Positions 2,022 to 34,487 of a stretch of DNA of 40,000 nucleotides are shown here, piece by piece. Numbering within the stretch: position 1 is the stretch's first letter; each line of letters opens with the position of its first letter. The stretch lies in the NCBI RefSeq assembly GCF_039523295.1, contig NZ_BAAAFA010000009.1, forward strand, positions 104,217-144,216, in the 5' to 3' direction. The stretch comes from Colwellia asteriadis. GTDB lineage: Bacteria > Pseudomonadota > Gammaproteobacteria > Enterobacterales > Alteromonadaceae. Made by a program: the position numbers and the translations under genes. Under the pieces are notes generated by a model. That model did no database searches. It was given only the letters and a program-made list of their open reading frames with translations, and was not told the DNA's origin.

Positions 2022-4604
2022 TTAGAAACGGTATTCTGCACCAGCGTAGTAAAAGGCGCCATTAAAGCCAAAAGGAGCTGAGCGACGAGAGTAAGTAAAT
2101 ACGCCAGGGCTACTAACAATTACGTTACCGCTAGCATCAACAATAGTCCCTGTTCTCGAGTTACCTATTTCGTTTTTATCAGGCATGACATCAAATAAAT
2201 TATTACCACCAATGTTAAATGATAATTGCTCGTTAACCTGATAACTAACACGTAAATCGGTTAGTATTTCAGCACCATAGGTTTGTCTACCACCATCGGT
2301 AACTGTGTATTCGCCGTAACGGTTAAATGCTAGATTAACGGTAAAGTCATTAATACGATACAAACCTGATAAGCTAATTCTATCTTGGGGTTGCCACTCT
2401 TCAATAATAGAAATATCTTGCTCGGAGAAAATATCCTCAGGTGGAATATCACCTAAGCCGCTATCGGGTGGTGTGAATATATTAACCACATCGGTTTCAG
2501 TAAAATTGGCTGCAAAGGTTAAGTCTAAATCACCACCGAGCATTTCACCGTTCCAAGTAGCAATAATATCTACCCCTTGTGTTTCTGTATCTGCACCATT
2601 TAGGAAGAATTGACCACCACCTGCGCCTGAGGCTTGCAGTGCAGCATCTAAGGCTGGAGATAAACCTTCACCCAACGAGTTACTTAAGACAATACGATCA
2701 TCAATATCAATGGTATAAAAATCAACGGTTAAGTTAATACTATCGGCTATTCTAATCACGGTTCCTAAGCTAAAGTTGGTTGACTCCTCTTCTTTTAATT
2801 GTGGGATACCAATGGCTTGCGCTAAGTTACTATCGTTTCTAAATGTTCCCACTTGAACAGCAATTTGATCGCCATCAGGATCATTCGGGTTGGTCTTAAA
2901 CTGTGTACTAATATTATTAAAGTAGAGCTGCTGCATTGACGGAGCTCTAAAGCCGGTACTCATTGCACCACGTAATGCAATATCTTCGGTAATTGACCAA
3001 TTCGCGGCAAGTTTGAAATTAGTGCTATCACCAAAGCCGTCATAATCATCGTAACGCACAGCGCCACTAACAATTAAATCATCGGTAATTTCCGTTTCAG
3101 CATCCAGATAAAATGAAATAACATCACGGGTTTCATCAACAGCCGATACCGGGCCTATACCGCCAAAGCCTTGAGTACCAGCACTTCTATCGGTGGGAAA
3201 TAAGCTAACACCATTTACGGTGTCGTAATCTCTATATGAATATTCTGCGCCAGGGGTTACTTTGTAAGTATCAGTGCGAATTTCAGCGCCCATTGCCAAT
3301 GAAAATAAGTCAAAATCTTGAGTATAATCAAGATTCAAGGTTGATAAGCTTAGCTCCAACCCGTAGGCAGAAGCTTCGCTAGGTACTGCAGCGCGAATTT
3401 CATCAGGAGTAATACTCGCTAAGGAGCCATCGTCATTGTACTGTAGTGCATTGGCATACGATGAATTAATCGTGTTGCTGGTGGTGTAATCAATGGTGTT
3501 TTGACCATAAGTGTAAGAAAAATCTAAACTGGCACCATTGTCAAATTCAGTTAAGTAGCCAAAGTTGTATGACATATCTTTAATATCTGAATTTATTTTA
3601 GGTAGAAACCCCATAGGAACAGTCGCGTCACCATCTTGTAGTGGCGCATTACCACCGGTATTGTTGTTATGACGAAAGAATGCGGCAGACTCGTTATCGC
3701 GATTAGAGTAGGTAATAAAACCATAAAGCTCACCTTCACCAAGCTCATAACCGGTATTTACGGTTAAACCAAACTGTTCAGAGTCGGCATCACCAATTCG
3801 AAAGGTATTACGAGGTGCCGTTGCTTCTCTTGGATCGCCAAGTAGTGAAGTACCATTACCTAAATCAGTACATCCCGAGAACTGACAAGAGCCATGCAAA
3901 CCTGCGCGATTAGTAAAACCTCTATCTCTAAAGTTAAGGGTGGTATTTAAATAGCCTTTATCGCCAAGTGCAAAGCCTTTTGAAATATCTATGTTAGTGG
4001 TTTCTCCATCACCTTCTGAATATTCACCGTAAGAAAGTGCGACTTTACCGCCTTCATCAGCGTCATCAAGAATGATATTAATAACACCAGCAATAGCGTC
4101 AGAGCCATACTGAGCGGCAGCGCCATCACGTAACACTTCAATGCGTTTTATTGAGGCGGCAGGAATCGCATTCATATCTGTTCCCGCGGTGCCTCGACCA
4201 ACAGAGGTATTAATGTGAATAAGGCTGGCTTGATGACGACGCTTGCCGTTTACCAATACTAAGGTTTGATCTGGGCCTAAACCCCTTAACGTTGCTGGTC
4301 TGAGTGCATCAGTGCCGTCACTAATGGCAGAGCTTGAAAAGTTAAATGAAGGTGCAATTGCTTGCAGCATTCTACCAACTTCTGTTTGACCTGTGTTTGC
4401 TAGTGCTTCTGCTGAAAGAATATCAACCGGCACTGGTAACTCATCAACAGAGCGACCACTGACGCGGCTACCAATAACAGATATTTGTTCTACGTCTTCT
4501 AATGAGGCTTTTGAGGGCTCTTGGGCTAAAGCACTTTGGCTAGCTACACCAAGTAAAATAGGTATTAGTGTGGTATTTATTATTTGTTTTTTACGATTGT
4601 ACAT
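2022..4604 (-). CDS. TonB-dependent outer-membrane receptor (860 aa)
   Basis: Signal peptide, TonB-box-like EQISVIGSR, plug-domain motifs (RVEVLRGxxxxxYGSDAIAGVINI) and terminal ..AGAEYRF beta-barrel signature. Confidence 0.9.
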   Translation of the reverse strand: MYNRKKQIINTTLIPILLGVASQSALAQEPSKASLEDVEQISVIGSRVSGRSVDELPVPVDILSAEALANTGQTEVGRMLQAIAPSFNFSSSAISDGTDALRPATLRGLGPDQTLVLVNGKRRHQASLIHINTSVGRGTAGTDMNAIPAASIKRIEVLRDGAAAQYGSDAIAGVINIILDDADEGGKVALSYGEYSEGDGETTNIDISKGFALGDKGYLNTTLNFRDRGFTNRAGLHGSCQFSGCTDLGNGTSLLGDPREATAPRNTFRIGDADSEQFGLTVNTGYELGEGELYGFITYSNRDNESAAFFRHNNNTGGNAPLQDGDATVPMGFLPKINSDIKDMSYNFGYLTEFDNGASLDFSYTYGQNTIDYTTSNTINSSYANALQYNDDGSLASITPDEIRAAVPSEASAYGLELSLSTLNLDYTQDFDLFSLAMGAEIRTDTYKVTPGAEYSYRDYDTVNGVSLFPTDRSAGTQGFGGIGPVSAVDETRDVISFYLDAETEITDDLIVSGAVRYDDYDGFGDSTNFKLAANWSITEDIALRGAMSTGFRAPSMQQLYFNNISTQFKTNPNDPDGDQIAVQVGTFRNDSNLAQAIGIPQLKEEESTNFSLGTVIRIADSINLTVDFYTIDIDDRIVLSNSLGEGLSPALDAALQASGAGGGQFFLNGADTETQGVDIIATWNGEMLGGDLDLTFAANFTETDVVNIFTPPDSGLGDIPPEDIFSEQDISIIEEWQPQDRISLSGLYRINDFTVNLAFNRYGEYTVTDGGRQTYGAEILTDLRVSYQVNEQLSFNIGGNNLFDVMPDKNEIGNSRTGTIVDASGNVIVSSPGVFTYSRRSAPFGFNGAFYYAGAEYRF

Positions 4605-4898
4605 TGTGAATATTCCCTATCATGTTTAGTAACTTAACTGCGTAAGCTATTAACAACATCGATTAACGTCCGTATTATTATCATTTATCGGTTGTAATCG
4701 AATAATAACCTTTTAATTCATTTACTTGCTAAAGCGTAGTCGAATAAAGTTAAAATACAATGTTTTTAAATAACTTGAGGGAAGGAGAGTGCCTGATAAG
4801 AAGTAATGCGCTGAGTAAGTCGAACTCAGGTTGATCAATAAAGCAGCCATAAAAGCGCGCTATGCAAATAATAAAAAACCGCTGCTATGTTAGTAATT

Positions 4899-5092
4899 AA
4901 CCTGAGCTCGGCTTAACAAATGTTTCTCTAGCAGCTACTTTTCCTAACTTCTTCGTTAAATTTACTTGCAATAGGCTAGCTATTGACGCGAAATTTGCCT
5001 TGAATTAAGAAAAACTATCAAGCTAGAGACTCAGAAAAGTAATTTTTCTGATATTTCAATTTGTTAAATATCTCTTAAACCGAGTTCAGGTT
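4899..5092 (+). mobile_element. MITE-like non-autonomous element, copy 1 (194 bp; 13-bp internal deletion relative to copies 2 and 3)
   Basis: Left end AACCTGAGCTCGGCTTAACAAAT. Reverse complement of the right end is AACCTGAACTCGGTTTAAGAG (16/18 terminal identity). Flanked by direct TAATT (4894-4898) and TAATT (5092-5096). The last T is ambiguous between the TIR and the duplication, so the TSD is 4 or 5 bp. Confidence 0.75.
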
Positions 5093-5147
5093 AATTAAAC
5101 ATGTGAGCGGCTTATTTATTGTTATAAAAATTTATTGCTATAAAAAT

Positions 5148-13583: not shown

Positions 13584-13685
13584 TTAATTTGTTTTATAAA
13601 ACCTATCATTCGTTAGTTTTAAATATAGCAAAGAGATTATTTTATGAAAGTTATATAGCTTATTAGCCCGTATTACTTACTAAAT

Positions 13686-13892
13686 AACCTGAGCTCGGCT
13701 TAACAAATGTTTATCTAGCAGCTACTTTTCCTAACTTCTTCGTTAAATTTACTTGCAATAGGCCAGCTATTGACGCGAAATTTGCCTTGCTTATCATATG
13801 AAAAGAAGAAAAACTATCAAGCTAGAGACTCATAAAAGTAATTTTTACTGATATTTCAATTTGTTAAATATCTCTTAAGCTGAGTTCAGGTT
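13686..13892 (+). mobile_element. MITE-like element, copy 2 (207 bp)
   Basis: Same TIRs as copy 1. Flanked by direct TAAAT (13681-13685) and TAAAT (13892-13896). Internal TTGACG-N16-TATCAT (13770-13797) points rightward. Confidence 0.8.
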
Positions 13893-14194
13893 AAATAATA
13901 ACAGTAATCAGATTTGATGAATTTCGATTTTCATTAAGACGCCTATTTTTAAATCACCGATAATGTCACGATAAGTTTTACATTTACTATTTGATTTTTA
14001 ACGGTTTATTTTTATTTTCGTTCAGTAGTATAAAAATTATATTCTTGCAGAATAAAAGGTGCTACATTCTGCAAATCACGATACTTTCATCGATTATCAC
14101 GAACTCAAAATCCGTCCTACATCAACTGAAAAAATCCTAAAGACTACGTATCGCGATAATAACTTTGGTCTAATTTTTTTAAGGAATATCAAAC

Positions 14195-17065: not shown

Positions 17066-18164
17066 ATGTTCGAAACTAACCCAGTATTAAGTAAGTTAAA
17101 AGAAATTCGCGAGCGTGCAAACCTGCTTAGGGGGTACCTTTGACTACGATGTTAAAGCCGAGCGCTTAATTGAAGTTACCCGCGAATTAGAATTACCCGA
17201 TGTTTGGAATGAACCAGAAAGAGCGCAAGCGCTAGGAAAAGAGCGTAGCGCGCTTGAAGAAGTCGTAAAAACTATTGTTGAGCTTGAAACAGGCTGTGAA
17301 GATATTGAAGGCTTAGTGGAACTTGCTGTTGAAGAATCTGATCAAGATACTTTTGACGATGCAACAGCTGAAGCCGAAGCGCTTGATGCCGTTTTGGAAA
17401 AATTAGAGTTTCGTCGTATGTTTTCTGGCGAGCAAGACGCCAACAACTGTTATTTAGATATTCAATCAGGATCAGGCGGCACCGAAGCGCAAGACTGGGC
17501 AGAAATGCTGATGCGTATGTATTTACGCTGGGGTGAAGCACATGGTTATAAAACCGAAGCCATTGAAGTTACTGATGGCGATGTTGCTGGCATTAAAGGT
17601 TGTACGATAAAATACACCGGTGAATTTGCTTATGGCTGGTTACGTACTGAAACAGGGGTTCACCGTTTGGTTCGTAAATCACCGTTTGACTCATCTGGTC
17701 GTCGTCATACCTCATTTGCTTCAGCGTTTATTTACCCTGAAATAGATGACAATATTGATATTGACATTAACCCAGCTGATTTACGTACCGATACTTTCCG
17801 TGCTTCAGGTGCTGGTGGTCAGCATGTTAACAAAACAGACTCAGCAATTCGTATTACCCATATTCCAACGGGCGCTGTGGTTGCTTGTCAGGCTGACAGA
17901 TCACAACATAAAAACCGCGCGACTGCGATGAAGTTGCTTAAAGCCAAGCTTTATGAAATGGAAATACAAAAGCAAAACGAAGGCAAACAAGAATTAGAAG
18001 ATGGAAAATCAGATATTGGTTGGGGCAGTCAAATTCGCTCTTACGTACTTGATGATAGCCGTATTAAAGATTTAAGAACGGGTGTTGAAAACAGAAACAC
18101 TCAAGCCGTACTTGACGGTGATTTAGATAAATTTATTGAAGCGAGTTTAAAGTCTGGCTTGTAA
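17066..18164 (+). CDS. prfB: Peptide chain release factor 2, expressed by programmed +1 frameshift (17066..17140 joined to 17142..18164)
   Basis: Frame 0 reads [25 protein letters not shown] then in-frame TGA at 17141. The +1 frame continues DYDVKAERL... through the SPF and GGQ ([11 protein letters not shown]) motifs. Confidence 0.93.
17129..17144 (+). promoter_or_regulatory. prfB autoregulatory +1 frameshift site
   Basis: AGGGGGTACCTTTGAC is an internal Shine-Dalgarno-like AGGGGG, 3 nt, then slippery CTT followed by TGA C. E. coli has AGGGGGUAUCUUUGAC. Confidence 0.9.
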
Positions 18165-20313: not shown

Positions 20314-20793
20314 TTAACTTTGTGTTGAATTCTTGGTCTGATTAATAGCTGATGTAGTTATTAATGCTATGTGTATAAAATTCACTACTATCAATGTAAG
20401 TATTATTTTTAGCCAAATAATTGTTTGGCCTGAAAGCAACATTAATATACATAAGCTAAAAGTGAATAATAAAAATGTGATTGCGGCAGCATATAAGTGA
20501 TAGAAAAGCTTAAGGTAACCAGCATTGCGCCATAATGTAAAGCTAGGGTTGTTTGATACTGAAAGAATATAAGCCCCTATTGCAGCTATGAAACCTGTCA
20601 TAGTCATACTGAATGACGTTAATATGCTAATCAATAAATCAGTATTTTTAGGAACTATGTGAGGAAAGAGTGATACACCAATACATTTAGTTATGATCCA
20701 ATAAATAAAAAGTAAAGCAGGGCTAAGTAATGCAGATATTAACCATATTCCTCTTGCAAATGATTTGATTTCATCATTGGAAAGCTGACGCAT
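20314..20793 (-). CDS. Four-TM small membrane protein, RexB-like (candidate membrane effector)
   Basis: 159 aa with four long hydrophobic segments. The segment ..NFIHIAL.. near the C-terminus and a central ..GY.. loop resemble lambda RexB (144 aa, 4 TM, ..SFIHICIL..) as recalled. ATG lies 2 nt after the upstream stop, with GAAGG upstream. Confidence 0.55.
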   Translation of the reverse strand: MRQLSNDEIKSFARGIWLISALLSPALLFIYWIITKCIGVSLFPHIVPKNTDLLISILTSFSMTMTGFIAAIGAYILSVSNNPSFTLWRNAGYLKLFYHLYAAAITFLLFTFSLCILMLLSGQTIIWLKIILTLIVVNFIHIALITTSAINQTKNSTQS

Positions 20794-20795
20794 GT

Positions 20796-21773
20796 TTAAC
20801 CTTCACTCTCATCAATTAAGTAAGTGTCTTTATTTGAAAGTTTAGACCAATTTGAGCAAGAATGGTCAGTCGTTATCCTGTCACTAACACCTTCAATATA
20901 TGCGTTATAGGCATCTACAATAGACTGATTGGCGTATCTTTTATCTTGAATTTGCATCTCTATAGAAGCTTTCAAATAAGGGTTGATGATGTCAAAAAGT
21001 ATCATCGAATGATCTAAGAAATAATCTTTAATGTTTTCCTGAAGGCTATTTTGTTTTGCCCTAAGGTGTACTTCTGCAAACTCTTTGCCATTAGTATCTG
21101 ATTGTATTAAATCAAGTAGTGGCTTAATGTCTTTTTCAATTCCATTTTTAATGCCAGTACGCTTTACACTGATACTAATTTCTACATTGTTATCAGGTGT
21201 GTTACTTGCTAATAAACCAGACAAAATTCCATTCATACTGGTTTTTCCATTTAGGATTACGTTAGCTTGCGATATTAGCTTCAACTTCCCTACAGATGAC
21301 TTACTAACTTCACTTTGAAGTGGTATTACTTTTAGTTGGTATTTTTTTATATCAGGGCCATATATTCCATTCAATATTTCATTTAAGTAGTATTCAAGAT
21401 CATCTACTGAAGCCCCGCCTAAAGATGAAGTAACACCAATTATAGGTTTACTCTTATCAAAATGGATGTATGTAACTTTTTCTAAACTATCACCGTCTTC
21501 TAAAACTTCATTTAAGTCCTTTATGACACCAGACCCTTTATTAAGAGTTCTATAATTGGCTAAGGACGCAGGTACCATCAAATAGTAAACATCGGGATAA
21601 ATTTCTGCTTTAGCAAAATATAGATTTTTAGATGACTTATCATGATACTTTTCAAGAATTGATTTTTTACTTTGGTGCTTACAATAGACTTCAACAATGT
21701 CAGATATACAAATATTGCAAATTTTGCCAGTGTCTTTAAAGGTTATAGTGTATGCGTAATAATTTAGTTTCAT
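20796..21773 (-). CDS. Soluble 325-aa protein, RexA-like (candidate phage-sensing partner)
   Basis: No TM segment or signal peptide. Several segments are collinear with lambda RexA as recalled: the N-terminus (MKLNYYAY vs MKNGFYAT), IKDLNEVLEDGDSLE vs VEDIKNSLADDESLG, IGV..GGASVDDLEYYL vs IGF..GPTTSDLTDFL, and VHLRAKQ vs ISLRAKD. The DNA is very AT-rich. Confidence 0.55.
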   Translation of the reverse strand: MKLNYYAYTITFKDTGKICNICISDIVEVYCKHQSKKSILEKYHDKSSKNLYFAKAEIYPDVYYLMVPASLANYRTLNKGSGVIKDLNEVLEDGDSLEKVTYIHFDKSKPIIGVTSSLGGASVDDLEYYLNEILNGIYGPDIKKYQLKVIPLQSEVSKSSVGKLKLISQANVILNGKTSMNGILSGLLASNTPDNNVEISISVKRTGIKNGIEKDIKPLLDLIQSDTNGKEFAEVHLRAKQNSLQENIKDYFLDHSMILFDIINPYLKASIEMQIQDKRYANQSIVDAYNAYIEGVSDRITTDHSCSNWSKLSNKDTYLIDESEG

Positions 21774-26760: not shown

Positions 26761-26785
26761 AGTTTTTCTCGTTTTTTGATTAGTT

Positions 26786-26992
26786 AACCTGAGCTCGGCT
26801 TAACAAATGTTTCTCTAGCAGCTATTTTTCCTAACTTCTTCGTTAAATTTACTTGCAATAGGCCAGCTATTGACGCGAAATTTACCTTGCTTATCATATG
26901 AAAAGAAGAAAAACTATCAAGCTAGAGATTCTGAAGAGTAATTTTTTCTTATATTTCAATTTGTTAAGCACTTCTTAAACCGAGTTCAGGTT
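26786..26992 (+). mobile_element. MITE-like element, copy 3 (207 bp)
   Basis: Same TIRs as the other copies. Flanked by direct TAGTT (26781-26785) and TAGTT (26992-26996). Roughly 90% identical to copy 2 by eye. Confidence 0.8.
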
Positions 26993-27025
26993 AGTTAGGG
27001 CACATATATGCCACTACATGGTTAT

Positions 27026-30871: not shown

Positions 30872-32452
30872 TTGACATTATCATTAAACGATTATATCGG
30901 TGCTTTTAGCCAACACGACAACTTATCTGCTTTAACAGGTATTGGTCGAGGCATAGAGCGAGAAGCATTACGAGTGTTGCCCGAGGGGAAGCTCTCTACT
31001 CATGGTCATTATCACCAACTTGGCTCGGCACTCACTCATGAGCAGATCACCACTGATTATGCCGAATCATTATTAGAGTTTATTACGCCTGTTAGTCACT
31101 CACCAGAGCAAACTATTGCTCAGCTGCAAGATATTCAAAAGTTTACTTTCGAGAATATTGAAGGTGAATGGTTATGGCCGATGAGTATGCCTTGCTTTGT
31201 GAGCGATGCTGATACCATTGAGCTGGCACAATATGGTAGTTCTAATATAGGAACGATGAAAACGGTTTATCGACAAGGCTTGAAAAACCGCTACGGCTCT
31301 ATGATGCAAGTGATTGCTGGAATTCATTTTAACTTTTCTTTTTCACATGATTTTTGGACGTTACAACAAAGCTTACATGAAAATACTCAGCCACTTGATG
31401 AGTTTATCTCAGAAGGTTATTTTTCAATTTTACGTAATTACAAACGCTTTTGCTGGTTAATACCTTATTTATACGGTAGTTCACCGGTAATATGTCGCTC
31501 ATTCTTGCAAGGTAGAGAAACCTCGCTACCTTTTAAACAAACACCATTTGGCGCTTTGTATTTAGAGCATGCGACTTCTTTACGTATGAGTGATTTAGGC
31601 TATACCAGCAGCGAGCAATCATCATTAAAAATTTGTTATAACAATTTAGCTGACTATGTTGAGGCCGTGCAACAGGCGATTAAATTAAAATCAAATGATT
31701 TTGCCGAAATTGGCGTGAAGGTTGACGGTAAATATCAGCAACTTAACGACAACGTATTACAAATTGAAAATGAGCTATATGCTCCTATTCGTCCTAAGCG
31801 TGTTGCTAAGTCGGGTGAAAAACCTTCTCAAGCACTAGGCAAACGTGGTGTTGAATATATTGAAGTGCGTGCTCTTGATGTGAACCCTTTTGTTGAAACA
31901 GGGATCAGTATTGAGCAAGTTTACTTTTTAGATGTGTTTTTAACCTTTTGTGCCTTTGCAGGAGATCACGAGCTTGACTGTGAAAGCCAGCGTGTTAATG
32001 AAAAAAATATGCATGAGGTGGTATTACGTGGTCGTGATCCCGCATTGTTACTCGCTGATATAAATACTGACGGCGTTTCTACAGAAAAGTCAGTAAAACA
32101 GTGGGGTAATGAATTATTTGAGCAAATGCAGCAAGTGGCAACTTTACTTGATCAGGCTTACCACAGCACAAAATACACTGAAGCGGTTACACGTGAGTGG
32201 GCCAAAATTACCGACAGTAATTTAACGCCATCAGCACAAATATTAGCGATAGTGCAAGAGCAAAAGCTAACAGATTATTCGTTAGCTCAAGCGAAAAAAT
32301 ATCAAGAGCAAGCAATACAGCGCGATTATCAGTTTTATTCACAAGAGCACTTTATTGAGAGTGCTAAGCAGTCGCACATAGAGAGACAAGCGATTGAAAA
32401 TGAAGATACGCTTAATTTTGATGATTTTTTAGAGCATTATTTTAATAAGTAA
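30872..32452 (+). CDS. gshA: Glutamate--cysteine ligase
   Basis: GIEREALRV..LGSALTHEQITTDYAESLLEFITPV..WPMSMPC..IELAQYGSSNIG..YRQGLKNRYG is collinear with E. coli GshA. TTG start. Confidence 0.9.
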   Translation: MTLSLNDYIGAFSQHDNLSALTGIGRGIEREALRVLPEGKLSTHGHYHQLGSALTHEQITTDYAESLLEFITPVSHSPEQTIAQLQDIQKFTFENIEGEWLWPMSMPCFVSDADTIELAQYGSSNIGTMKTVYRQGLKNRYGSMMQVIAGIHFNFSFSHDFWTLQQSLHENTQPLDEFISEGYFSILRNYKRFCWLIPYLYGSSPVICRSFLQGRETSLPFKQTPFGALYLEHATSLRMSDLGYTSSEQSSLKICYNNLADYVEAVQQAIKLKSNDFAEIGVKVDGKYQQLNDNVLQIENELYAPIRPKRVAKSGEKPSQALGKRGVEYIEVRALDVNPFVETGISIEQVYFLDVFLTFCAFAGDHELDCESQRVNEKNMHEVVLRGRDPALLLADINTDGVSTEKSVKQWGNELFEQMQQVATLLDQAYHSTKYTEAVTREWAKITDSNLTPSAQILAIVQEQKLTDYSLAQAKKYQEQAIQRDYQFYSQEHFIESAKQSHIERQAIENEDTLNFDDFLEHYFNK

Positions 32453-32500: not shown

Positions 32501-32548
32501 AAGGCTAACCCAATGTACATTTTATGTATGGGGTTAGCTTTTTTTTAT
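32501..32548 (+). terminator. gshA rho-independent terminator
   Basis: GCTAACCC (32504-32511) pairs with GGGTTAGC (32531-32538), with inner TACAT/ATGTA pairing, followed by T9. Confidence 0.7.
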
Positions 32549-32594
32549 GCGTTTTTTCACTGTAATATTAACTACTATGGCATGAGATGAGGGC

Positions 32595-32687
32595 AAAAAA
32601 ATACGCCCACTAAGGAGCGTATAAAACATGAAACACTAGGGAGTACATTACTCCTAATATAAGAGTGCTTATATTCTAATTAGTTCA
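32595..32687 (-). ncRNA. Candidate sRNA, array unit A (divergent paralogue)
   Basis: Minus-strand hairpin TACGCTC/GGGCGTA followed by T7. Its stem substitution gives G-U on the minus-strand transcript but C-A on the plus. Upstream TTTACA-N18-AATATT. The 5' end is a guess. Confidence 0.3.
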
Positions 32688-32745
32688 AAAAATATTCAAT
32701 CTTTTTATTTTAAGTGTAAATAGTAGGTTTTGGCCAATTTTAGAC

Positions 32746-32834
32746 AAAAAAATACGCTCACAATGGAGCGTATAAAAACATGATAAGGGAATAACATTAC
32801 TGTTAAGTAAGAGTGTAGTCTTGCTAGTTAGTTC
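32746..32834 (-). ncRNA. Candidate ~89-nt sRNA, array unit B
   Basis: Minus strand reads TTAGCT-N17-TAAAAT (32869-32841). The predicted start is near 32834. The body carries the hairpin UAACA-GUAA-UGUUA and a U/C-rich UUAUUCCCUUAUCAUGUUUUU stretch. The terminator is ATACGCTC-CATTGT-GAGCGTAT followed by T7. Confidence 0.4.
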
Positions 32835-32915
32835 AATTTAATTTTACTTTTCTTGAGTAAATTAGCTAAATTTTAATTTTTATTCAGCTTAAACACGACA
32901 TACTGAATTTTAGGC

Positions 32916-33004
32916 AAAAAAATACGCTCACAACGGAGCGTATAAAAACATGATAAGGGAATAACATTACTGTTAAGTAAGAGTGTAGTCTTGCTAGTTA
33001 GTTC
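32916..33004 (-). ncRNA. Candidate ~89-nt sRNA, array unit C
   Basis: Same architecture as unit B. Promoter-like TTAGCT-N17-TAAAAT is conserved and the terminator is intact, with only a loop substitution. Confidence 0.4.
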
Positions 33005-33085
33005 AATTTAATTTTACTTTTATTGAGTAAATAAGCTAAATTTTTAATTTTATTCAGTTTAAACACGACATACTGAATTTTAGAC

Positions 33086-33173
33086 AAAAAAATACGCTCA
33101 CAATGGAGCGTATAAAAAACATTAAGGGAATAACATTACTGTTAAGTAAGAGTGTAGTCTTGCTAGTTAGTTC
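33086..33173 (-). ncRNA. Candidate ~88-nt sRNA, array unit D
   Basis: Same architecture as unit B, with a 1-nt net deletion just upstream of the terminator. Promoter-like element conserved. Confidence 0.4.
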
Positions 33174-33254
33174 AATTTAATTTTACTTTTATTGAGTAAA
33201 ATAGCTAAATTTTTAATTTTATTCAGTTTAAATACGACATACTGAATTTTAGGC

Positions 33255-33343
33255 AAAAAAATACGCTCACAACGGAGCGTATAAAAACATGATAAGGGAA
33301 TAACATTACTGTTAAGTAAGAGTATGGTATTTTCATTTAGTTC
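33255..33343 (-). ncRNA. Candidate sRNA, array unit E (divergent 5' and promoter region)
   Basis: The terminator and 3' two-thirds are identical to units B-D. The region upstream of about 33325 diverges and the -10 is not conserved. Confidence 0.25.
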
Positions 33344-33434
33344 CATTTCATTTGTTTTTTCCTTAAATTATTTTTATGCAATGTGTCATGAGTTCTGGCA
33401 TTATCTTAACTACCTGTAAGTTAGTTGATTTTTT

Positions 33435-34055
33435 ATGTTTAAATTTAAAACCATTACGGCAAGTACGTTAAGCGTAATATTACTCTCAAGTTGCGCAACG
33501 CCTCCTCCTAAAAACCCTGAAAATATCTGTGAAATATTTAGAGAGCACAGAGATTGGTATGATGCTGCTAAAGCAACTCAAGAGCGCTGGGGTGTTCCGA
33601 TTCATGTGCCTATCAGTATGATGTACCAAGAAAGCTCGTTTCGCCATAACGCCTTACCTCCTAGAGATTATCTTTTAGGGTTTATTCCATGGGGAAGAGT
33701 GAGTACTGCTTATGGTTACTCTCAAGCGAAAACCATGACCTGGGATGACTATACGCGTGAAACAGGCAATAACTGGGCAAGCAGGGAAGATTTTGATGAT
33801 GCAATTGATTTTATGGGTTGGTTTATTTATAAAACCCAAAAAGTAAATGGTGTTTCTAAGTGGGATGCTTACAATCAATATTTAAATTACCACGAAGGCT
33901 GGGGTGGCTTTAAACGTAAAAGTTACAAAAAGAAGCCTTGGTTGATGAAAGTTTCACGCAAAGTAGATGATCGTGCGCGTCGTTATAGTAGTCAGTTAAA
34001 AAGTTGTGAGAAAGAGTTTCAGCATGGCTGGTTATGGAGATTATTTTTTGGTTAG
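33435..34055 (+). CDS. Lipoprotein with lytic-transglycosylase (SLT)-like catalytic motif
   Basis: Lipobox LLSSC. The MMYQESSFRHNA motif resembles the SLT catalytic E-S motif, and ..AYGYSQ.. follows. Confidence 0.6.
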   Translation: MFKFKTITASTLSVILLSSCATPPPKNPENICEIFREHRDWYDAAKATQERWGVPIHVPISMMYQESSFRHNALPPRDYLLGFIPWGRVSTAYGYSQAKTMTWDDYTRETGNNWASREDFDDAIDFMGWFIYKTQKVNGVSKWDAYNQYLNYHEGWGGFKRKSYKKKPWLMKVSRKVDDRARRYSSQLKSCEKEFQHGWLWRLFFG

Positions 34056-34394: not shown

Positions 34395-34457
34395 GAGCAG
34401 AAAATAATTTTGCTAATATTTAAATTTGTTAAATATCTTTTAAACCGAGTTCAGGTT
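34395..34457 (+). repeat. Solo right-end fragment (~63 bp) of the MITE-like element
   Basis: GAGCAGAAAATAATTTTGCTAATATTTAAATTTGTTAAATATCTTTTAAACCGAGTTCAGGTT aligns with the right third of the full copies. No left end nearby. Confidence 0.7.
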
Positions 34458-34487
34458 AAGTACATTAGTGTTGAGTTAGTAAAGTTA

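Follow-up and report, generated by a model that had tools for sequence, protein, structure and literature searches.

The region between gshA and a gene for an SLT_4-domain protein in Colwellia asteriadis carries five head-to-tail units on the minus strand, each of which resembles a complete small RNA (sRNA) gene. We analyzed 40,000 nucleotides (nt) of contig NZ_BAAAFA010000009.1 (positions 104,217 to 144,216; here called the window, with positions counted from its first letter), in which the array occupies positions 32594 to 33350. We consider it probable that the array consists of five tandem, independently transcribed genes for multicopy, σE-dependent, base-pairing sRNAs of ~56 to 59 nt. Each unit would comprise an A/T-rich tract resembling an UP element, an RpoE (σE)-type promoter (GAACT-N17-TCTTA) with transcription starting at a purine 6 nt further on, ~27 nt of weakly structured 5′ sequence with the conserved seed UUAUUCCCUUA..CAUGUUUU, and an 8-bp, G+C-containing terminator hairpin with a U7 tail. 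The anatomy of the array, its conservation in Colwelliaceae, the covariation of its terminator, its functional strand, its variation in copy number, and its synteny with micA are established here, and the feature is real and under selection.

Anatomy and promoter of the array

An earlier sequence-only reading of this DNA had described five tandem units with periods of 151, 170, 170, and 169 bp in the gap between gshA and an SLT-like gene. The periods were reproduced by the spacing of the terminators in which the units end, and Pfam placed Glu_cys_ligase and SLT_4 domains on the two flanks (Table 1). Tandem Repeats Finder reported a repeat with a period of 170, 3.5 copies, and 95% matches at 32736 to 33323, and a separate repeat search of the window returned spacings of 170, 170, and 169. 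The gap contains one open reading frame (ORF) of 59 amino acids (aa) and one of 41 aa and no other. Five terminator-like sites were found on the minus strand, with 0.4 expected from shuffled sequences; each hairpin is followed by a T run on this strand and by A's on the plus strand, as the sequence-only reading had it. Also as proposed there, the stem of unit A (ATACGCTC/GGGCGTAT) contains a U-G pair in the minus-strand transcript and a C-A mismatch on the plus strand.

Folding of the predicted RNAs gave a weakly structured, exposed 5′ region of ~27 nt followed by the 8-bp terminator with its U7 tail. The CCCUU stretch that had been singled out as a possible pairing region lies in a conserved, C/U-rich, single-stranded segment. 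Three seed variants are present within the window: units B, C, and E share one, unit D has a second, and unit A has a third.

Table 1. Positions of the array units, flanking genes, and candidate target site in the window
Feature	Position	Strand	Basis and remarks
gshA (glutamate-cysteine ligase)	30872..32452	+	Pfam Glu_cys_ligase, E 5e-161; ORF list; convergent with the array
Probable gshA terminator	32503..32547	+	Long hairpin GGCTAACCC...GGGTTAGC, then T run; read directly from the sequence
Unit A σE-like promoter, GAACT-N17-TCTTA	32660..32686	-	Pattern match; kept in the five-unit alignment
Unit A predicted sRNA, seed variant GUACUCCCUAGUGUUUCAUGUUUU	32595..32653	-	Covariance-model match 32595-32652, 55.8 bits; terminator 32601-32622 plus U7
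Unit B σE-like promoter	32808..32834	-	Pattern match
Unit B predicted sRNA (AGUAAUGUUAUUCCCUUAUCAUGUUUUUAU plus terminator 32752-32773)	32746..32801	-	Covariance-model match, 55.6 bits
Unit C σE-like promoter	32978..33004	-	Pattern match
Unit C predicted sRNA, terminator 32922-32943	32916..32971	-	Covariance-model match, 54.5 bits; fold
Unit D σE-like promoter	33147..33173	-	Pattern match
Unit D predicted sRNA, seed variant UUCCCUUAAUGUUUUUU, terminator 33092-33113	33086..33140	-	Covariance-model match, 51.4 bits; fold
Unit E σE-like promoter; upstream flank unique, nonrepeat	33317..33343	-	Pattern match, five-unit alignment
Unit E predicted sRNA, terminator 33261-33282	33255..33310	-	Covariance-model match, 54.5 bits
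SLT_4-domain protein gene, divergent from unit E; conserved right-hand neighbor	33435..34055	+	Pfam SLT_4, E 2.8e-82
Candidate target site AAACAUGAUAGGGAAUA	4611..4627	-	TonB-dependent receptor 5′ untranslated region (gene 2022-4604), -24 to -8; covers Shine-Dalgarno AGGGAA

The probable gshA terminator was missed by a simple terminator scan because of its long loop.

When the five units were aligned on the minus strand, all of them had tGAACTAA, 15 to 16 variable bases, and TCTTA ahead of the RNA body. Units A and E diverge from units B to D upstream and in the spacer, yet they keep both boxes. In the 40-kb window, GAACT-N17-TCTTA matched five times, always in the array, versus 0.10 matches expected. 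The σE consensus is GGAACTT, about 16 nt, and TCnAA. Read from the fetched E. coli K-12 loci, the micA promoter is GAACT-N17-TCTGA-N6-G(+1) and the rybB promoter is GAACT-N17-TCTTA-N6-G(+1); the boxes and spacing of the array units are identical to those of rybB, including TCTTA. All five units carry boxes that match the σE consensus at the correct distance from the predicted 5′ end of the RNA. By analogy with micA and rybB, transcription is predicted to start 6 nt past TCTTA, at the A/G of AGUAAUG. Such a start would give RNAs of ~56 to 59 nt (+1 to the end of the U run) and would leave the 5′ arm of a UAACA/UGUUA hairpin mostly untranscribed.

Related units from other genomes (described below) point the same way. 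Under the looser pattern GAACT-N17-19-TCNNA, the spacing was exactly 17 in all 143 of them, the promoter spacer carried 0.1 to 0.6 bits of information per position, and 138 of 141 had a purine at the predicted +1. Upstream of GAACT, a 20-nt stretch is A/T rich, moderately conserved, and UP-element-like.

The sequence-only reading had assigned a different promoter, a σ70-like TTAGCT-N17-TAAAAT that would drive each unit and produce an sRNA of ~85 to 95 nt with a UAACA-GUAA-UGUUA hairpin at its 5′ end. We regard this as unlikely. Units B, C, and D are indeed preceded by both hexamers in identical form, TAAAAT matches five of six positions of the -10 consensus, and the hairpin forms when the 87-nt version is folded. 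However, units A and E have the body and terminator but not this promoter, whose -35 box agrees with the consensus at three of six positions and was not called by a promoter scan. This promoter is not conserved in relatives either: where the -35 box would fall, 93 related units showed no conservation (≤0.5 bits per position), and TAAAAT lies inside the A/T-rich, UP-like tract. The proposed length falls with the choice of promoter, and the hairpin, seen only in the 87-nt fold, is not conserved outside Colwellia proper, being absent in members from Thalassotalea and Cognaticolwellia. Reading of the array sequence revealed no σ54 box (TGGCA-N7-TGC) of the kind found at Qrr genes.

A small protein was considered as the product of the units and rejected. 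The 59-aa ORF (33167 to 33346, minus strand) spans unit E and a spacer, and the other units are without its ATG. An AUG at RNA position 5 of the Colwellia consensus opens a frame of four codons, and insertions and deletions in the seed break any frame.

Conservation and RNA-level selection in Colwelliaceae

We scanned the region past gshA in one genome per species, covering 58 Colwelliaceae loci together with loci from Alteromonas, Pseudidiomarina, and Pseudomonas. On the strand opposite gshA and within 2.5 kb of it, GAACT-N17-19-TCNNA matched one to nine times in most Colwelliaceae loci, a few of these matches falling within the downstream gene rather than in sRNA units, and had no match in the Alteromonas, Pseudidiomarina, or Pseudomonas loci. 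The strict pattern, GAACT-N17-TCTTA, occurred 98 times in gshA-downstream segments and was absent from the other 1.09 Mb of the same loci. A covariance model (R1; 80 sequences, 6 base pairs) was built from the RNA body only, from the predicted +1 to the U run, which removes the ascertainment bias of the promoter pattern. Over 921 kb it produced 174 matches at an E value of ≤0.1, of which 172 were opposite the gshA strand, all within the interval that separates gshA from the following gene in Colwelliaceae loci; at the same threshold, there were no matches in the Alteromonas, Pseudidiomarina, Pseudomonas, or E. coli loci. The window gave exactly five matches, with scores of 51 to 56 bits. σE-like boxes ended 6 to 7 nt before the match in 74 of the 75 best body-only matches, and the exception has GAACC. 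The proposal of independent minus-strand sRNA genes arranged head to tail is supported.

The terminator helix showed strong covariation. In a model-guided alignment of 150 matches, a procedure that favors the modeled helix, 97.3% of cells were paired, six of six pairs had changes on both sides, and 177 cells were compensatory. The covariation score was not reached by any of 500 column shuffles, and sliding the pairing partner abolished the signal. The distinct stem sequences are also plain in the raw list (ATACGCUC, GCGCUCUC, GCGCAUACC, GCACCUAU, GCCCUUAU, and GACGCGUUAC). The functional strand is confirmed by ~50 G-U cells of the helix, where the opposite strand would have C-A mismatches. Of the two hairpins proposed for each unit, the terminator covaries in relatives and the 5′ hairpin is missing from Thalassotalea and Cognaticolwellia. 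An intrinsic terminator with a U tail that is under RNA-level selection agrees with assignment to the σE sRNA class.

Between genomes, identity was 79% in the seed, 73.5% in the terminator, and 61% in the promoter spacer; within genomes, the terminator was most uniform (93%), and the seed varied more (88%). This pattern suggests that units were duplicated recently or underwent gene conversion, that purifying selection maintains the seed from species to species, and that siblings have diverged to some degree.

The family falls into several types. Most Colwelliaceae have a single gshA-proximal sRNA (type 1; GAAAGC..CCUCCCUGGACUGCUUUC..). This sRNA shares the promoter type, forms a strong 5′ hairpin, and precedes at least one unit of the array type found in the window (type 2). 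Type 1 was present in ~38 loci (L002 to L064), ~100 to 250 bp past gshA and with a GCGCGUUGCCCUAACGCGC terminator (e.g., L024, 6626 to 6689). It was sought in the window and is absent there, so that the window is unusual in having five type 2 units and no type 1. A third type (UAUGUUUCCCUUGAAC) occurs in some Thalassotalea.

Copy number varies. A nearly identical genome (98.9%; GCA_018860755.1) has four units versus five in the window, and across species the number of sRNA units past gshA, all types pooled, ranges from zero to eight. The array breaks short-read assemblies, eight of the ~58 related contigs ending inside it, so that draft genomes give a minimum copy number. Tandem sibling sRNAs have been described with two members (OmrAB, PrrF, and AbcR) or four (LhrC1 to LhrC4), and csRNAs number two to six in a mixture of distal and tandem genes (PMC4211561, PMC13350326). 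With five homologous units, each with promoter boxes and a terminator, the array is a multicopy tandem sRNA locus, and five tandem genes with σE-type promoters are at the upper end of these examples.

Several observations concern less regular relatives of the units. In the four-copy strain, one unit (L001, 433 to 520) lacks 1 nt of the -10 box (ACTCTACTTAAC in place of ACTCTTACTTAAC) and may be inactive. Genomes resembling Colwellia psychrerythraea contain four to six sub-repeats of 100 to 110 bp with a type 2-like body and no σE boxes (L057, 6954 to 7329; L006, 7182 to 8020; also L003, L004, L053, L055, and L064). These are laid out as ..AUGUUAUUCC[A/G]C..UUAGUGACGUUUCAUGUUUU plus a terminator and start ~27 nt past the previous terminator. 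In the window, the spacers after the terminators (minus strand; 32880 to 32910, 33050 to 33080, and 33220 to 33250) hold a 7-bp inverted repeat, ATTCAGT-N13-ACTGAAT, the first half of which, GCCTAAAATTCAGTATGTC, also precedes the promoter-less sub-repeats in other Colwellia.

Rfam 15 contained no family that matched the window at the gathering score, as the sequence-only reading had supposed, and nothing convincing at an E value of ≤10; gathering and permissive Rfam scans of 12 related loci gave nothing usable. Two proteins encoded in the window are 100% identical to proteins of Colwellia sp. D2M02, and a search with SLT_4 for closer relatives of the strain found nothing between 82% and 100% identity. 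Full-text literature searches turned up no account of Colwellia sRNAs or of the array. If the RNAs are expressed as predicted, they would add a family not in Rfam 15, from cold-marine Colwelliaceae.

Relationship to MicA and other sRNAs

The order gshA then SLT_4 was conserved in 53 loci (tblastn). The two genes nearly abut in Alteromonas, Pseudidiomarina, and Catenovulum, and up to 3.1 kb separates them in Colwelliaceae; no sRNA was found between them in Shewanella or Catenovulum. In Psychromonas, the order is gshA, a 165-bp gap, SLT_4, luxS, and corC, and in E. coli it is gshA, micA, and luxS, with micA convergent and ending 9 bp from the 3′ end of gshA. A location of micA downstream of gshA in convergent orientation has been reported (PMC2956633, PMC4618604). 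The Psychromonas order connects the Colwellia and E. coli arrangements, and comparison of the gene orders and promoters indicates that the array holds the position and orientation of micA and has a micA-type promoter. In Psychromonas sp. psych-6C06, the gap (L089, 3334 to 3500) contains a minus-strand terminator with TTGAACT..TAATA upstream and matches the body model weakly (24.5 bits; E value, 0.009); this element may be a diverged single-copy relative.

MicA (SraD; RF00078) of E. coli and Salmonella thus resembles the array units in lying directly past gshA in convergent orientation, in its GAACT-N17-TCNNA-N6-+1 promoter, and in being short with an intrinsic terminator. It differs in being single copy, versus five copies with another seed, in pairing with ompA through a different 5′ sequence, and, as we read the E. 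coli sequence, in having its CCCUG inside a stem-loop. Reported occurrences of MicA are limited to Enterobacteriaceae (PMC4618604). RybB shares identical promoter boxes and spacing (GAACT-N17-TCTTA). Together with MicV and VrrA, it also resembles the array units in having a seed at the 5′ end and a terminator, in length (~60 to 80 nt; MicV is 68 nt [PMC6694218]), and in its role as the repressing arm of the envelope stress response, which is the role expected here, while all three are single copy and located elsewhere. Their conserved seed, GCCACUGCUUUUCUUU, does not occur in the window RNAs (z of about -1.4, below shuffles). The type 1 sequence ACUGCUUUCUU of related genomes slightly resembles the RybB seed, at a marginal z of about 2.1.

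The array shares its multiplicity with other systems. LhrC1 to LhrC5 of Listeria monocytogenes form a multicopy sibling set in which four genes share an intergenic region; these sRNAs are stress induced and pair through CU-rich motifs with the ribosome-binding sites of surface-protein mRNAs (PMC13350326). They differ from the array in their Gram-positive host, in their unrelated sequence and structure (their CU motifs lie in loops), in their regulator, and in the Hfq independence of their known functions. OmrA/OmrB, PrrF1/PrrF2, and Qrr1 to Qrr5 are likewise sets of duplicated, homologous sRNA genes with a separate promoter and terminator for each member, and the tandem OmrA/OmrB pair represses the TonB-dependent receptors cirA, fecA, and fepA (PMC4211561). 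The Omr and PrrF genes form two tandem copies and the Qrr genes are dispersed, whereas the array has five tandem units, and related genomes carry up to eight sRNA units. The regulators of Omr and PrrF, OmpR and Fur, are unlike the σE-type promoter of the array; Qrr genes are controlled by σ54/LuxO, and Rfam found no Qrr match (RF00378) in the window. The likeness to Qrr, PrrF, and OmrAB drawn in the sequence-only reading is apt for copy number only; in promoter type and genomic position, MicA and RybB come closest. We file the array RNAs as a new sequence family within the σE sRNA class, as positional analogues of MicA and not as MicA.

Proposed function, candidate targets, and alternative explanations

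σE sRNAs have been characterized in E. coli and Salmonella (MicA, RybB, and MicL) and in Vibrio (MicV and VrrA). Hfq-dependent sRNAs typically have a U-rich stretch by a terminator that ends in a long U tail. In the explanation that we favor, envelope stress would release σE, all copies would fire together, and output would scale with copy number. The RNAs, probably with Hfq, would pair through the anti-Shine-Dalgarno-like UUCCCUU and the adjacent CAUG stretch at the translation-initiation regions of envelope-protein mRNAs and repress them, so that the array would serve as the repressing arm of the envelope stress response, like MicA, RybB, MicV, and VrrA. Since the number of units varies even between nearly identical genomes, the family would offer a natural series for the study of sRNA gene dosage.

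As a candidate target of units B, C, and E, modeling of duplexes points to the mRNA of a TonB-dependent receptor encoded in the window (Table 1). Its leader is complementary to nt 9 to 26 of these units and forms a predicted duplex of -22.0 kcal/mol, with 17 bp and one bulge (background, -8.1; standard deviation, 2.8). Among the 26 translation-initiation regions scanned in the window, it ranked first for the B/C/E seed, and in a search of both strands of the entire window it came second among distinct sites. Precedents exist in the repression of TonB-dependent receptors by the envelope-linked OmrA/OmrB (PMC4211561) and of outer membrane proteins by the σE sRNAs MicA, RybB, MicV, and VrrA (PMC1804206, PMC6694218).

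The receptor at 2022 to 5147 (minus strand) is a short form, at 860 aa, and a TAG lies in frame 15 nt ahead of its ATG; orthologues mostly have ~950 aa, an N-terminal STN domain, and a FecR neighbor. A further pairing was noted in prfB (17115 to 17200, plus strand), where the RF2 frameshift site CUUAGGGGGUACCUUUGAC is complementary to the unit A seed GUACUCCCUAG (-25.5 kcal/mol). This is probably a side effect of the anti-Shine-Dalgarno-like seed.

The following points weigh against the σE-dependent explanation. Transcription, σE dependence, the exact +1, Hfq binding, and the targets are predictions from the DNA, and rpoE, rseA, and hfq are presumed to be present in this genome from general knowledge of gammaproteobacteria. 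The promoter could be read by another extracytoplasmic function (ECF) sigma factor with a similar -35 box (AAC), and bodies without σE boxes in related Colwellia indicate that not every member uses the promoter. The alignment behind the covariation counts (A3) was fitted to the model. With regard to MicA, its Rfam model matched neither the window nor the related loci at the gathering score or at an E value of ≤10, local alignments with MicA were at background when compared with shuffles (z of 0.2 to 1.6), and a type 1 nhmmer profile did not match the E. coli micA locus; RybB (RF00110) likewise had no Rfam match in the window or related loci. With regard to the target, a site inside ffh scored slightly better than the receptor leader, and of four orthologous receptor leaders, one paired moderately with the consensus seed (-17.6 kcal/mol) and three weakly.

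If the promoter were instead recognized by some other ECF sigma factor, for example of the FecI type, or by a further stress regulator, the RNAs would belong to another regulon, such as iron or TonB-receptor signaling. We think this improbable, although an AAC-containing -35 box is generally common to ECF promoters and the candidate target is a TonB-dependent receptor whose orthologues adjoin fecR. The boxes, the spacing, and the 6-nt distance to +1 are identical to those of E. coli rybB, and FecI-type promoters have different -10 boxes.

It is quite improbable that the RNAs act instead mainly as sponges, decoys, or protein-titrating RNAs or regulate SLT_4, the divergent neighbor, in cis. Titrating RNAs typically come in many copies, the anti-Shine-Dalgarno-like CCCU motif might pair nonspecifically with a wide range of leaders (as in the pairing of unit A with prfB), and relatives contain promoter-less sub-repeats. 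However, there are no repeated GGA (CsrA-type) motifs, E. coli MicA and RybB are likewise laid out as one exposed seed ahead of a terminator, and pairing with the SLT_4 leader was at background (-11 kcal/mol).

A neutral minisatellite, a REP- or MITE-like repeat, or a stack of terminators insulating gshA from SLT_4 is highly implausible: copy number does differ between close strains, eight related contigs end in the array, and copies within a genome are alike in a way that suggests recent duplication or gene conversion, but the seed and promoter boxes are kept across genera while spacers drift, the stems show compensatory changes, the strand bias is strict (172 of 174), and no minus-strand gene runs into the array, both neighbors being on the plus strand. 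A freely varying minisatellite, which would have spoken against the sequence-only reading, is contradicted by these observations.

Multicopy σE-dependent sRNAs being the explanation that we favor, a broader history of the locus can be sketched, which we offer as speculative and rather doubtful. The region 3′ of gshA may be an ancient σE sRNA site of Enterobacterales (micA) and Alteromonadales, at which a MicA-like ancestor diversified in Colwelliaceae into the single gshA-proximal type, the tandem array type, the Thalassotalea type, and the promoter-less sub-repeats. Tandem amplification would then have brought the array type to a maximum of five or six copies. The difference of four versus five copies and the divergence of sibling seeds would make repression dosage tunable, and the result would be a fast-evolving repressing arm aimed at TonB-dependent receptors, which dominate the outer membrane of marine heterotrophs. 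In view of the synteny with micA, the gshA-linked envelope stress sRNA may be much older than Enterobacteriaceae.

Two further features of the window were noted. An intergenic repeat of ~209 nt is present in full copies at 4898 to 5106, 13685 to 13893, and 26785 to 26993 and as a 62-nt piece at 34401 to 34462. It also occurs at L001, 1 to 88, where the contig of the related strain ends in a copy adjoining unit A, and it looks like a MITE-type element. At 20314 to 21773 (minus strand), a gene for a RexA-like protein (Pfam RexA; E value, 2.5e-15) adjoins a 159-aa ORF with no Pfam match, and the two may form a RexAB-like abortive-infection pair.

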